The notes beneath the pieces were generated by a model. It worked only from the letters and a program-made list of their open reading frames with translations. It was not told where the DNA came from and searched no databases. A DNA stretch of 64,000 nucleotides. It comes from Candidatus Saccharimonadota bacterium. Its GTDB lineage: Bacteria; Patescibacteriota; Saccharimonadia; Saccharimonadales; HK-STAS-PATE-42. A program made the translations under genes and the position numbers. Positions 603-64,000 of the stretch are shown piece by piece. Where the stretch lies: assembly GCA_036826375.1 (NCBI GenBank), contig DAISWL010000001.1, forward strand, positions 40,201-104,200, read 5' to 3'. Each line of letters begins with the position of its first letter. Position 1 is the stretch's first letter.

Positions 603-632
603 TTGACATACTAATGTTATTTATGCTAGTAT
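603..632 (+). promoter_or_regulatory. sigma70-type promoter TTGACA-N18-TGcTAGTAT for the 687 ORF
   Basis: TTGACA lies at 603-608 and TAGTAT at 627-632, preceded by TGC (extended -10). The string tatattgacat...ttatgctagtat recurs upstream of the 35897 ORF and at 33448-33476. Confidence 0.6.
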
Positions 633-686
633 GTAAGCGGTAGACGTAAGTAAAACACAAAAATAATTTGAAAGGAATATACCTCA

Positions 687-1280
687 ATGAGTGCGGAAAA
701 TGAATTTGCGACTAGGCCATCACCTAAACATTTACACTGTGAACAAGAGCCCGATGCGCTAACAAGATTACAAGATGCGGTAGACTCCGGGGAATTAGAA
801 AGAGTAGATTCGAGTTTTGTGGCTCGAGGAGCAAGCATGGCAGCCCGCGAAATAGCCAGAGTGTCATCCAATAGTATAATTGGGGCGAACGTTCACTACG
901 ATACAGCTGAATCTAGCTCCGGGCTCAGACGTTTAGCAGGGGAAGTTGGGAAAAAATTAATGAGTCGCCTGTTCCCCGACAGATATCCCCCTCATGTTTT
1001 ATATGTGATGCACAGTCTTATCGATAATGTGTATTTACCTAAACCTGGGGAAATTAAAAATCATGGGGCACCGACGACCTTATTAAGAGGTTCAACCGTG
1101 CTTGGATTTGATGACAATGGCACAGATTTCGGTATGGCGCAGGTCGAACGAGGAGCCGGGGTTAGCGATTCTACCGTTTTTGGGCCCGTTAAGATAGGCG
1201 AAGGTGCCAGGGTTACGAATTCCGTAGTATCCTACGTTTGCCCACAGCCTGTACCCATAGTTGGCGAAGACGCTGACTAA
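687..1280 (+). CDS. G+C-rich hypothetical protein; C-terminal part looks like a left-handed beta-helix/hexapeptide-type repeat; possible 3' frameshift
   Basis: 197-aa ORF with its own promoter and a weak SD. A +1-frame ORF at 1282-1398 (SDVGYLNRGEKLRLPGHADEATVTRIPNGGTLFEANAK*) continues the same style of sequence. Confidence 0.55.
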   Translation: MSAENEFATRPSPKHLHCEQEPDALTRLQDAVDSGELERVDSSFVARGASMAAREIARVSSNSIIGANVHYDTAESSSGLRRLAGEVGKKLMSRLFPDRYPPHVLYVMHSLIDNVYLPKPGEIKNHGAPTTLLRGSTVLGFDDNGTDFGMAQVERGAGVSDSTVFGPVKIGEGARVTNSVVSYVCPQPVPIVGEDAD

Positions 1281-1408
1281 CTCAGATGTTGGCTATTTGA
1301 ATCGTGGAGAAAAGCTTAGATTACCCGGGCACGCTGATGAGGCAACAGTTACACGCATTCCAAACGGGGGGACACTCTTTGAAGCAAATGCCAAATAGTA
1401 GTTATTAC

Positions 1409-1762
1409 CTAGCTGTTATCAACAGCGCTAACAACAGCTTCAAAAGCTTTTGGCTCGTTAACAGCAAGTTCAGCTAAAGTTTTTCTATCCAAAATAATTT
1501 CAGACTGATTAAGCTTAGCAATAAACTTGGAATAACTATTGGTAGGATCCAACTGCCTTAGGGCTGCGTTGATTCTAACAGTCCACAAACGGCGGAAATC
1601 ACGCTTTTTGTTACGTCTATCGCGGTAAGCATACTGCAGTGAACGGATGACTCCTTGTTTTGCCAACCTGAAAGATGTACGACGAGGATGACTCATCCCT
1701 TTCGCCATCTTTAAAATTTTCTTGTGCTTAGCTCTTTTGGTTACGCCTTTTTTAACACGCAT
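1409..1762 (-). CDS. rplT: 50S ribosomal protein L20
   Basis: Typical L20 sequence ([36 protein letters not shown]) in the infC-rpmI-rplT order. Confidence 0.95.
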
Positions 1763-60905: not shown

Positions 60906-62278
60906 AATTTATTTATTATATCCTTAAACCGATTTCCCCGCTCTTCAAAATTATTAAACATATCAAAACTCGCCGAACCTGGGCTAAAAATTAACACCTC
61001 TTCGCCTTTTGTATCCGCAATTACGGATTTGATTATCTCTTCAAAATTAGAAGAGTTCGAAGATCCTAAAACTACATAATTACTGTAGCCTTCTTTATCG
61101 AAAGCATCTTTAATTTTTAACCTATTTTTACCATAAATAAAAGTCTTGATTCTCTCTCCGCCAAGCTTAAGTACTTCGGCCAGTTCACCGAACTGAACGC
61201 CTCTATCAAAGCCGCCCAACATTAAAACTATTTTTTTATTGAAAGATTTAACCGCCGCTAACGTTGCGCTAGGGTTTGATGAATAGCTATCATTGTAGAT
61301 TTCCAGACCATCGATAGTTTTTACAAATTCCATTCTGTGCGGCAGACCCTTGAATTTTTTGATTGCGGCCGCTATTGAATTTGAACTTAAGCTTAGAGCT
61401 TTAGCCGTATTCACAGAAGCCATTACATTTTCTAAATTGTGAGCACCAATTAATTTTACATCTGTTGTTGAACAAATTATTTGATCATTAAACTTAATGT
61501 TTTGATTAGAAATATGAGCAAAATTTTTATTTGGGTAGGGCACTTTTTTGCCAGCTGGTGAGTTGATTCCAAATTTGGAACTGATTTTATTTTCGCTAAA
61601 ATAGATTAGCGAATCTTCTTCATTCTGAAACTTGGTGATATTAAACTTAGCATTTCTGTAATCTTCAATATCGTCGTGGACATCTAGGTGATCTTCGGTA
61701 ATCATCAAAATTACCGCCACCTGCGGGCTAAACTTAATATCCCACAGTTGAAAAGATGACAGCTCTAAAACTACATAATCTTCTGGCTGAATCTCGGAGA
61801 TTAAACTTAAAGCCGGCTTGCCAATATTGCCAAGCAAGTGAGATGCTCGGCCATCTTCAATTAACATCTGGTGAATTAAGCTAGATGTTGTCCCCTTGCC
61901 TTTTGTGCCAGTTACGCCAATTAAGTTTTTAGATTTAACTCTGGCAAAGAATTCGTTGGTGCCACTCCAAATAATAGCGCTAGATTCTATTAGCCTAGGG
62001 TTAATTGGTGGTGAGCGAAATATTATCTGAATATCACTATTTTGATTAAGTTTAGATATATAACTTTCGCCACTCGAGAATTGATAGTTCCCCGGAATTT
62101 CGCCGGCGAGATTTTCTTTAGCATCGTAAATAGTTATTTGATTAGAATCCAAACCCTGCTTAGTTAAGTAACTTAGAGTTGCTCTACCTTCTAAACCGTA
62201 ACCAAGAATTGCAACTTTCCCCTTAAACTTAGACCATTCAAATGTTGGCGATTTTAAATCATCCAAACTCAAGACCAT
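60902..62278 (-). CDS. murD: UDP-N-acetylmuramoyl-L-alanine--glutamate ligase (MurD; D-Glu or L-Glu specificity undetermined)
   Basis: Mur ligase P-loop GVTGTKGKGTT with MurD domain order. Confidence 0.85.
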   Translation of the reverse strand: MVLSLDDLKSPTFEWSKFKGKVAILGYGLEGRATLSYLTKQGLDSNQITIYDAKENLAGEIPGNYQFSSGESYISKLNQNSDIQIIFRSPPINPRLIESSAIIWSGTNEFFARVKSKNLIGVTGTKGKGTTSSLIHQMLIEDGRASHLLGNIGKPALSLISEIQPEDYVVLELSSFQLWDIKFSPQVAVILMITEDHLDVHDDIEDYRNAKFNITKFQNEEDSLIYFSENKISSKFGINSPAGKKVPYPNKNFAHISNQNIKFNDQIICSTTDVKLIGAHNLENVMASVNTAKALSLSSNSIAAAIKKFKGLPHRMEFVKTIDGLEIYNDSYSSNPSATLAAVKSFNKKIVLMLGGFDRGVQFGELAEVLKLGGERIKTFIYGKNRLKIKDAFDKEGYSNYVVLGSSNSSNFEEIIKSVIADTKGEEVLIFSPGSASFDMFNNFEERGNRFKDIINKL

Positions 62279-63561
62279 AGTTTTAAGAATTCCTTTTCTA
62301 CTTTTTTGGCGACATCTTGGTGGCTAGGCAAACCGAGAATTGAAACTGCTTGAGAGTTATTGTTTATAAACTTATTTAAGATGTTAGTGATATCTGTTTT
62401 TGTAATGACGTTGATTTTGTTTTTGTAATTTTGGTAATCACGGATTTCATCATCTTCGTAGAAATCGCTAGCGAAATAAGATATGTAGTTATTTGGCGTT
62501 TGCAGTGCTTTCTGGAAGCTACCTAGTGCAAACTGTTTGGCGCCCTTAAGTTCTGAATCTTTAAGCCCACCAGCTGCTATTTTTTTAAGCTCAGAGGTTA
62601 CTAACCTCATAACATTAACTGCGTTTTTATCGCTAACTTGAATGAAGAACTCAAAGCCAGGATATTCTCGCCAATTACCGCAACCGGAGCTCATATCGTA
62701 GACCCAGCCTTTTTCGCGAGCTTTTCCGAAGATGCGCGAATGCAGGGTTCCGGTAATAATGTTGTTCAAAATTTTCATAGCTAGATGTTCTTGCTTGGTG
62801 ATTGGATTTTGCAGGAACATTTCTGCCTCTATACTGAGGGCGCTGGCATCATCTTTTTTAATGAAGAGCAGTGGTTTTTTAATAGGCTTTCCACCCTTAA
62901 TAATATCTAATCGCTTGGTTCCTGAGCTGAGTTTAAACTGATCTACTAAACTTAAGATTGCTTTTTTACGGGGTGCGGAAATTTTACCGGCAATTATGAA
63001 CCGCATATTTTTTTGAGTATGAGTTCGTTTGTAATGCTCTGTAATATCAGCGTGAACTACGTTATCCATTAAGCTTAAATTATCTTTAAAGGTTGTTTTA
63101 GTTAAACCTACATTTTTATTATGGAGCTGAAATAAACGTACGGTATCGTAGTTCCATCTTAGAGCCAACTCTTCTTTAACATTGCCGAATTCTGCCTTAA
63201 ATTCGTTTTCTAAAAACTGTGGCGATTCTAACTGCAATAGAAGATGAGAGAGTACTCGTTTCCATTCGAAATCAGCACAATTGGCATAATAAGCTAGTGA
63301 GGTATGGCTGGTGTAGGCGTTAGTAGATGCCCCATTTTTCTGCAAAACCGCGTTATTTTTACGCATTGTTTTATACTTAGCGTTTGCTCCAAAAGCAAGA
63401 TGCTCCATAATATGAGCTGTCTCCACTTTTTGTTCGCTGATTGCATATCTATCACCCGCTCTGAATTCAAATTCAAAAGCCATTGTATTGGCTCCGGGTA
63501 CATGAATTATTAGGCCCTTAGCGCCGCCTTTTGTTTTAATTTCTTCTACCTTAAAACCCAT
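62269..63561 (-). CDS. M16 family (pitrilysin/insulinase-like) zinc peptidase
   Basis: Inverted zinc motif HIMEH. The promoter TATAAT lies 8 nt before the ATG. Confidence 0.8.
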   Translation of the reverse strand: MGFKVEEIKTKGGAKGLIIHVPGANTMAFEFEFRAGDRYAISEQKVETAHIMEHLAFGANAKYKTMRKNNAVLQKNGASTNAYTSHTSLAYYANCADFEWKRVLSHLLLQLESPQFLENEFKAEFGNVKEELALRWNYDTVRLFQLHNKNVGLTKTTFKDNLSLMDNVVHADITEHYKRTHTQKNMRFIIAGKISAPRKKAILSLVDQFKLSSGTKRLDIIKGGKPIKKPLLFIKKDDASALSIEAEMFLQNPITKQEHLAMKILNNIITGTLHSRIFGKAREKGWVYDMSSGCGNWREYPGFEFFIQVSDKNAVNVMRLVTSELKKIAAGGLKDSELKGAKQFALGSFQKALQTPNNYISYFASDFYEDDEIRDYQNYKNKINVITKTDITNILNKFINNNSQAVSILGLPSHQDVAKKVEKEFLKLWS

Positions 63562-63583
63562 TAAGTTTAATTATAGCACTTTA

Positions 63584-64000
63584 TTATTTTGCTAAGAATA
63601 CCGGCAAGGTTCCATCGGTTAGAGTTGCTGCTGTTGCTAATGTATATATAGTTACTGCAGCCATTGCTGAGGATCTTCTACTTTCATCAATATGTCCCTT
63701 TTTAGCCAACGCATCTATCATGCTTTCAGCCTGCCAGATATCCACCACAAAAACTTGAGGTATTTTTGAATCTACTCCATGCTCATCAACCATAGATTGG
63801 CGGAATGATTCTTGATCAAAAGTAACACCTTTTCTAGTATTTATAACTACGAATGCCTCTTGGTGATTGCCGGTGAGCTCTTTCCTAGCCACGTTCTCAC
63901 ATTCTTGTTCTAGATATTGCTGCTGAGCGGCTCCGTCGTAGCCATCAAAATAATGTCCATTTTTTCTTTCTTGAAAAATAATGTTGGTTAAGTTTATATC
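63584..64000 (-). CDS. hypothetical protein, comparatively G+C-rich, 5' end outside the window
   Basis: The track ORF starts at GTG 63892, but the frame stays open to the window edge (...NGHYFDGYDGAAQQQYLEQECENVARKELTG...). Confidence 0.5.
   Translation of the reverse strand, partial: DINLTNIIFQERKNGHYFDGYDGAAQQQYLEQECENVARKELTGNHQEAFVVINTRKGVTFDQESFRQSMVDEHGVDSKIPQVFVVDIWQAESMIDALAKKGHIDESRRSSAMAAVTIYTLATAATLTDGTLPVFLAK

Follow-up and report, generated by a model that had tools for sequence, protein, structure and literature searches.

We analysed a 64 kb stretch of DNA (the window) from a bacterium that is reasonably placed in a divergent, poorly sampled lineage of Saccharibacteria-type bacteria belonging to the candidate phyla radiation (CPR). 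The subject was eight loci that a preliminary description had singled out as G+C-rich orphan genes, inserted one by one between AT-rich housekeeping genes and acquired from a donor of higher G+C content. We concluded that these loci probably fall into three groups: one gene imported from Acidimicrobiia (50954), six fast-evolving resident genes restricted to the lineage (687, 9609, 18518, 35025, 36260 and 56999) and the tail of one gene of the CDCA family (63584), each named here after its first coordinate. Transfer from a high-GC donor was supported for one gene of the eight. When a few genes of an AT-rich genome stand out by their G+C, it is easy to assume horizontal transfer, and a split of the base composition by codon position shows that this would be wrong for most of the loci. 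Seven of the eight exist as the described open reading frames (ORFs); 9609-10089 (-) was found to be two frames and not one ORF.

The window has a G+C content of 38.2% and is gene-dense. Its housekeeping genes, which include those for ArgRS, LysRS, ProRS, RNase Y, RF1, FtsEX, Mur ligases and the ribosomal proteins L20, L35 and L27, lie chiefly on the minus strand; to call the plus strand almost empty was an overstatement, as 13 of approximately 69 ORFs are found on it. When one genome per species was searched (185,579 species), the closest relatives of RF1 came from metagenome-assembled genomes (MAGs) of Saccharibacteria and were only 51–54% identical. The best-matching MAGs had the gene order prfA-ftsE-ftsX in common with the window, with FtsE at 74% identity, and these matches agree with the earlier guess of a Saccharibacterium-type CPR bacterium. 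Contigs nearly identical to the window are present in many metagenomes; ERZ794922, ERZ27290344, SRR2107210, DRR545329 and JGI 3300059061 are among the samples in which identical contigs occur. Structured RNAs were rejected as the cause of the G+C-rich islands: an Rfam scan at gathering thresholds and ARAGORN detected no structured RNA family or tRNA at any of the eight loci, and the 3 tRNAs of the window all lie outside them.

Base composition was compared with that of the 60 other ORFs, for which the G+C fraction was 0.381 ± 0.025 overall (GC), 0.398 ± 0.031 at the first two codon positions (GC1+2) and 0.349 ± 0.036 at the third (GC3). The described enrichment held for six of the eight loci, namely 687 (z +3.7), 9609 (z +2.4), 18518 (z +3.2), 35025 (z +3.4), 50954 (z +6.1) and 56999 (z +3.3); 36260 (z +1.0) and the fragment at 63584 (GC 0.39) were ordinary. 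Mann-Whitney tests against the same 60 ORFs gave P = 4e-7 for GC, P = 1e-7 for GC1+2 and P = 0.57 for GC3. At every locus but 50954 the GC3 z-score lay between -0.7 and +1.3, and at 50954 it reached +5.6. The synonymous codon usage of 50954 was strongly deviant (z -5.9), with 687 (z -3.0) and 35025 (z -2.7) moderately atypical. A deviant composition at synonymous sites, the mark of acquisition from a higher-GC donor, was present in 50954 and absent in the other seven loci.

The amino-acid composition of the G+C-rich ORFs differed clearly from that of the other ORFs. Gly, Ala, Arg and Pro together (GARP) made up 0.25–0.33 of the residues compared to 0.20 ± 0.03 elsewhere, and Phe, Tyr, Ile, Asn and Lys (FYINK) 0.14–0.22 compared to 0.31 ± 0.04. 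The products are acidic, soluble proteins with isoelectric points of 4.6–6.8, the mean elsewhere being 7.9. As had been stated before, no product of the loci contains a transmembrane-like segment, and those of the six residents also lack a signal peptide. We concluded that the G+C excess, except in 50954, follows from the acidic, GARP-rich make-up of the proteins, which raises the G+C of codon positions 1 and 2.

The ORF 50954..51340 (+) encodes a four-Cys zinc-ribbon protein of 128 amino acids with GC 0.54 and GC3 0.55. Homologues were sought with HMMER, using seven of the ORFs concatenated, against 1.84 billion cluster representatives. The search gave 764 matches, the best 150 of which were listed; these reach down to E ~5e-11, are mostly relatives of 50954 and nearly all align to its residues 1–95. 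With a profile search, at least 1,894 clusters of this family were recovered at E ≤ 1e-5. All named members belong to Acidimicrobiales, Microthrixaceae, Iamia or "Actinobacteria bacterium", and BLASTP gave E values down to 1e-37. The protein is 45–59% identical to the Acidimicrobiia family over residues 1–97, so that 59% was the best identity to any donor-side protein, and its C-terminal tail (residues 98–128) is unrelated to the family. A nine-sequence alignment showed C8, C11, C38, C41, W67, LPxE and the first Asp of HDD to be invariant; H85 and D87 vary. The homologue P0016 (49–50% identity) lies in a pafB-pafC-...-tatA-tatC-helY locus of a genome with 72% GC. This context was seen for P0016 only, and in the window 50954 stands between genes for an M1 aminopeptidase and an ABC transporter. 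Compared with the Acidimicrobiia proteins of approximately 110 amino acids, 50954 thus keeps the four Cys, W67, LPxE and the mostly conserved HDD, and differs from them in its unrelated tail, its genomic context, its intermediate GC3 and a promoter module that it has in common with the resident orphan 18518.

The gene retains its position in the closest relative. Between the window and the relative L197 the ratio of nonsynonymous to synonymous substitution rates (dN/dS) was 0.25 and the synonymous divergence (dS) 0.21, similar to that of the flanks, and the L197 homologue has a GC3 of 0.58. Because of the flank-like dS, the low dN/dS and this GC3 we regard 50954 as an established functional resident and not as a recent arrival; judged by its substitution pattern, it is under purifying selection. 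Over approximately 750 aligned nt of the 50954 unit the window and L197 are identical save for two spots. A divergent patch at 51025-51100 holds 32 differences from L197 within 75 nt (amino acids 25–49), and the promoter differs by one unit of an AT tract, (AT)5 compared to (AT)6. The copy in L112 is identical in DNA apart from a 1-nt indel. Upstream of the gene lies a 190-nt 5' leader with a long hairpin at 50842..50910 (+); the leader (50770-50953) folds at z = -4.2 and matches no Rfam family. A terminator-like hairpin with a perfect 16-bp stem, 51325..51360 (+), overlaps the stop codon.

50954 may accordingly be described, in terms of a proposal, as an old domesticated import from a high-GC actinobacterial lineage of the class Acidimicrobiia, which would form a unit with its own promoter, structured leader and terminator and would be maintained by purifying selection. 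No relatives of it were found in the plasmid, phage and viral collections. The acquisition of the arginine deiminase system by Saccharibacteria (PMC8764695) is a comparable case, in that here too a gene that is foreign by composition, and belongs to a family centred in another phylum, is found in the genome of a CPR bacterium of epibiont type. It differs from that case in being one small gene and no metabolic operon, with a donor class, Acidimicrobiia, to which identity is at most 59%, and with a link to a host that is only conjectural. A single clear import of this kind into a Saccharibacteria-like genome hints at past partners of this uncultured organism.

For the six residents, no homologue outside the lineage was present among the best 150 of the 764 matches; the homologues found there were few, came from close relatives and were 42–75% identical. 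Synteny was retained in the closest relatives for 687, 9609, 18518, 35025, 50954 and 56999. The absence from this position that is expected of an acquired gene was, in these relatives, seen only for 36260. Thus, a homologue of 687 adjoins rplT in L107, and one of 9609 adjoins lysS in L097. The 108-amino-acid orphan 18518..18844 (+) has a homologue of 51% identity next to ftsJ in the more distant relative L113. The ORF 35025..35897 (-), encoding 290 amino acids, converges on rpmA, as does its homologue in L110 (74% identity). The ORF 56999..57427 (+), encoding 142 amino acids, lies between ftsE and prfA, and so does its homologue in L112. Distant Saccharibacteria lack this unit and have prfA next to ftsE with a gap of only ~90 bp, which indicates that the 56999 unit is specific to the lineage of the window.

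It could be argued that all G+C-rich ORFs came from higher-GC donors, for instance actinobacterial hosts, and that the older imports lost their GC3 signal and kept their amino-acid composition. A GARP-rich, FYINK-poor composition is typical of high-GC proteomes, 50954 shows at least one such transfer in the lineage, and the codon usage of 687 and 35025 is mildly atypical. Moreover, third codon positions are expected to ameliorate first, which is reportedly the established theory of Lawrence and Ochman. In the residents, however, nonsynonymous change equals or exceeds synonymous change, and positions 1 and 2 should therefore ameliorate no more slowly than position 3. Their GC3 is like that of the backbone, and the relatives' homologues of 687, 35025 and 18518 have an equally high GC1+2 (GC 0.46–0.49, GC3 0.37–0.41); the relative's 9609 homologue is lower (GC 0.42, GC3 0.31). 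With the nonsynonymous rate, the composition of the relatives and the lack of donor-side homologues among the matches listed all against it, and with the loci in syntenic positions across relatives, we consider an old transfer with ameliorated third positions decidedly unlikely. The donor origin put forward in the preliminary description was thus upheld for 50954, by its GC3 and codon usage, and was not supported for the other seven loci, where homologues are syntenic in relatives, GC3 is native, two frames are broken and 63584 is an ordinary CDCA-family gene.

To relatives, the amino-acid identity was 56% for 687, 74% for 35025, 74% for 9609 and 89% for 56999, compared to 93–100% for the flanking proteins. 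Between the window and L107, 687 differs by 107 nonsynonymous and 17 synonymous substitutions (dN/dS, hereafter omega, ~2.2–2.5; P = 1e-4). Against L194 it differs by 7 nonsynonymous and 0 synonymous substitutions, and the adjacent genes for L20 and IF3 by 0 nonsynonymous and 22 synonymous ones. For 56999 compared with L112 the counts were 16 nonsynonymous and 0 synonymous (P = 0.004). The P values for both genes were calculated with a mutation spectrum estimated from the four-fold sites of the flanks. A significant nonsynonymous excess was found in these two genes and in none of 35025, 9609, 18518 and 50954: 35025 had an omega of ~0.75–1.06, and 9609 and 18518 an omega of 0.18–0.4 in deeper comparisons. 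In the flanking genes omega was 0–0.13.

A bias towards positions 1 and 2 could also result from targeted mutagenesis, such as by a diversity-generating retroelement, or from overlapping constraint, and not from selection on the protein. Such retroelements are common in CPR bacteria. The third position is indeed the least changed (51/49/24, 10/6/0 and 4/2/1 changes at positions 1/2/3), and in 56999 the changes are concentrated in its C-terminal half. The window contains no repeat of any of the ORFs that could serve as a template, though, and there is no reverse transcriptase among the annotated genes; adenines are not preferentially substituted, nor do the variable codons have the form NNY. 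Overlapping constraint is contradicted by the alternative frames of either strand, in which all three stop codons occur many times. We therefore rejected both forms of this explanation as very improbable.

Two of the residents are disrupted in the window. The ORF 687..1280 (+) encodes 197 amino acids, and its C-terminal half is weakly hexapeptide- or left-handed beta-helix-like, a signal that stayed below threshold in the family (E = 6e-5). A 5-nt deletion at ~1271-1272 truncates the gene and removes the last ~40 codons, the remnant of which is found out of frame at 1281..1398 (+). In the conspecific P0006 and in P0011 this region is still in frame. Internal indels in the gene are 75, 9 and 3 nt long, all multiples of three. 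In L107 approximately 1.8 kb (6114-7869) is inserted upstream of the promoter of the 687 family; the insert contains a sugar-transport fragment, a 149-amino-acid ORF, a PadR regulator and a 70-amino-acid ORF, and the pair of the 149-amino-acid ORF and PadR resembles the window genes at 38673-39472 with 35–47% identity.

The 9609 gene is split. A C-terminal ORF of 120 codons, 9609..9971 (-), is preceded in another frame by the N-terminal fragment 9949..10089 (-), a 52-codon frame with its ATG at 10089, before which no ribosome-binding site is evident. Intact homologues of 161 and 217 amino acids carry this N-terminal extension. The extension is in the other frame because the tract at 9956-9966, (GA)5.5, lacks one GA unit (2 nt) compared to L097, which has the intact homologue of 161 amino acids. 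All eight conspecific contigs that cover the tract have the identical shortened state. Just downstream of the split gene, at 9517-9563, lies one copy of a 47-nt intergenic repeat, the other copy of which (8289-8335, 87% identity) is upstream of ArgRS.

The third case of variation is 36260..36715 (-), an ORF of 151 amino acids and ordinary G+C. It is bracketed by a 105-bp direct repeat, in accordance with the direct repeats described earlier; the downstream copy, 36099..36203 (-), carries TTGACAATTAAGCTTAAGTTT, and the upstream copy is at 36766..36870 (-). In the close relatives L110 and L111 the ORF is absent and a single copy of the repeat stands in its place. Judging from the two disrupted copies and this presence/absence polymorphism, the residents are probably dispensable.

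These same observations could be read as decay, with the six as meaningless ORFs, pseudogenes or remnants that undergo neutral erosion in a reduced genome. The frameshift truncation of 687, the split of 9609, the variable presence of 36260 among close relatives, the omega of ~1 of 35025, the low AlphaFold confidence for 687 and 35025 and the lack of any family match for the six would all fit. Neutral erosion does not, however, account for an omega significantly above 1 in 687 and 56999, for an omega of 0.18–0.36 when 9609 and 18518 are compared more deeply, or for internal indels of 687 in multiples of three. The frames were kept open through 78–141 substitutions, for which the probability of no stop is 0.002–0.03, all other frames of the orphans being rich in stops. 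The near-consensus promoters and Shine-Dalgarno sites are, in addition, associated with these ORFs in particular (P = 4e-4). On balance we find decay of all six quite unlikely.

The promoters themselves had been noted before, and their enrichment was confirmed. An exact TTGACA followed by a -10-like hexamer is located 62–84 nt 5' of 687, 18518, 35025, 36260 and 56999, that is at five of seven loci; of the 37 other genes that have 60 nt or more of free sequence upstream, only 2 have it (Fisher P = 4e-4). An AGGAG-type ribosome-binding site precedes five of the ORFs, and AAGGAA precedes 687. The promoter-like site of 687, 603..632 (+), reads TTGACA-N18-TAGTAT with a TG extension and has TTATGCTAGTAT in common with that of 35025, which is TTGACA-N17-TAGTAT at 35947..35975 (-). 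The site of 18518, at 18437..18469 (+), is TTGACA-N17/18-(TA)n. At 36260 the promoter (36758-36786, minus strand) is made up of the TTGACA of the upstream repeat copy and a TATGAT that begins the inserted segment. At 56999, 56937..56963 (+), a TTGACA, a (TA)n tract and a TATAAT are found at a non-canonical spacing of 15 nt. The 50954 gene has a promoter-like TTGACT-N17-TATATA 220 nt upstream (50732..50767, plus strand), which contains an (AT)5 tract. The earlier statement that distant loci share promoter modules was correct, as 23 nt at 18458-18480 in the 18518 promoter recur identically at 50752-50774 in the 50954 promoter.

Simple repeats thus lie within three of the promoters as (TA)n tracts, and at the frameshift point of 9609 as the (GA)n tract. 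The tract at 50753-50762 in the 50954 promoter is (AT)5 in the window and (AT)6 in other contigs that are 99.9% identical, and among twelve near-identical contigs the two states are split 5 to 7. No variation was seen among the 3–8 contigs compared in the (GA)n tract of 9609 or in the (TA)n tracts of 18518 and 56999.

Two further observations concern the surroundings of these units. A gap at 32850-33536 is AT-rich and holds no convincing ORF; its first part (32850-33075) consists of tandem palindromic units GTCATCCTGAACTTGATTCAGGATCCC with a period of ~46 nt. Two minus-strand consensus promoters are present in it, at 33294 and 33471, and the latter has TTATGCTAG(A/T)AT in common with the 687 and 35025 promoters. 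Interspersed in the backbone are three pairs that resemble toxin-antitoxin systems, PIN/Phd (18903-19548), ParE-like with a DUF6364 partner (20527-21044) and PIN/MazE (24239-24888). Of these, PIN/Phd separates 18518 from ftsJ in the window, and L113 does not have it.

The eighth locus, 63584..64000 (-), is the C-terminal part of a protein of 365 amino acids of the CDCA family (PF18484, cadmium/zeta carbonic anhydrase repeat) and runs off the window. In L007 (1-900) a 299-amino-acid part of the gene scored 35.3 bits, above the Pfam gathering score of 29.2, and the fragment in the window alone scored 23.2 bits. By these profile scores the locus is an ordinary CDCA-family gene and no orphan. The family is known chiefly from diatoms.

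We propose that 687, 9609, 18518, 35025, 36260 and 56999 are resident genes restricted to a Saccharibacteria-like lineage, each standing alone behind its own near-consensus sigma-70 promoter and mostly with a Shine-Dalgarno site. Their products are soluble, acidic and GARP-rich. The genes evolve much faster than the surrounding housekeeping genes, at least two of them show more amino-acid-changing substitutions than expected, and between close strains they are gained, lost, truncated or frameshifted. Such genes might encode dispensable, strongly expressed accessory proteins, probably with a role at the interface with a host bacterium or phage, where diversifying selection would act. The nonsynonymous excess in 687 and 56999 is compatible with the earlier idea of host interaction. 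To our knowledge, hardly any factor that sets host or phage specificity in CPR bacteria has been described, and small, strongly promoted, rapidly diversifying genes such as these are concrete candidates for that role.

Several points weigh against this proposal. Each selection test compares just one pair of metagenome contigs, drawn from a mosaic, recombining population with flank dS of 0.00–0.67. This spread was observed among housekeeping genes that are neighbours and were compared in one and the same pair of lineages (1409-8086 and 44600-50602 of the window against L107 and L197), where a 244-amino-acid gene at 5345-6079 has a dS of 0.013 and an aminoacyl-tRNA synthetase gene at 44600-45892 is identical, and it indicates frequent homologous recombination. 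Within 687 and 56999 dS falls below that of the flanks. Remote homologues of the six with weak similarity could lie beyond the best 150 matches (E ~5e-11), and the disruption of two of the six would fit decay as well. As none of the six has a signal peptide, their products would have to leave the cell by a non-classical route to act outside it or on a host. Sequence searches of Pfam, NCBIfam, PHROGs and the PDB gave nothing significant on the function of the six. The AlphaFold model of 687 was uninformative, with a predicted local distance difference test score (pLDDT) of 36; that of 35025 (pLDDT 52) was confident only for the C-terminal helical ~100 amino acids, and a Foldseek search of it against the PDB gave no match. 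Strong expression, finally, we infer from the consensus of promoters and ribosome-binding sites only.

The six residents resemble ORFan accessory genes under diversifying selection in their narrow lineage, short length, fast evolution, omega above 1 in some of them and presence/absence or truncation. They are unlike these genes in that they sit singly between housekeeping genes and not in islands, and in having near-consensus promoters and a shared acidic, GARP-rich composition in an AT-rich genome. No paralogy was detected among the orphans. Phage morons are likewise single-gene units with their own promoter and deviant base composition between conserved genes, and 50954 has a strong terminator; here, however, the loci are flanked by housekeeping genes with no prophage, a clear terminator is found in only one unit, and no relatives were found among PHROGs, phages or viral contigs. 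A phage, plasmid or viral origin was rejected, as the loci had no matches in those collections.

A stronger form of the proposal would see the six as dispersed, strongly transcribed and partly repeat-tuned contingency genes with which an ultrasmall epibiont would vary the proteins that it uses against host or phages; whole-gene omega above 1 would then mark the molecular interface in an arms race between CPR bacteria and hosts. The (TA)n promoter tract of Haemophilus hif is an example of a contingency locus. The (TA)n tracts in three promoters, the (GA)n tract at a frameshift and the (AT)5/(AT)6 polymorphism among 99.9%-identical contigs recall such loci. The tracts here are nevertheless short (5–6 units), the (AT)n polymorphism leaves the spacing from -35 to -10 unchanged and (GA)n is fixed in the eight conspecific contigs that cover it. 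We think this stronger form unlikely.

Three observations elsewhere in the window concern other genes. A 27-nt near-perfect palindrome GTTGACAGTTGATAATCAACTGTCAAC at 9460-9486, with TTGACA on both strands, lies just 5' of a 345-amino-acid gene (8403-9440); it resembles an operator that overlaps with a promoter. A heliorhodopsin gene (PF18761) at 12432-13223 (-) is located between GreA and a gene of the Cu-oxidase_4 family; the literature contains reports of rhodopsins in Saccharibacteria. In L112 (8918-9568), compared with the window (59607-60905), a 216-amino-acid Asp/Glu racemase on the opposite strand replaces MurL, within flanks that are 97.6% identical. The neighbouring Mur ligase of L112 is only 68% identical to that of the window, and the exchange looks like a swap of the route to peptidoglycan D-Glu between close lineages.

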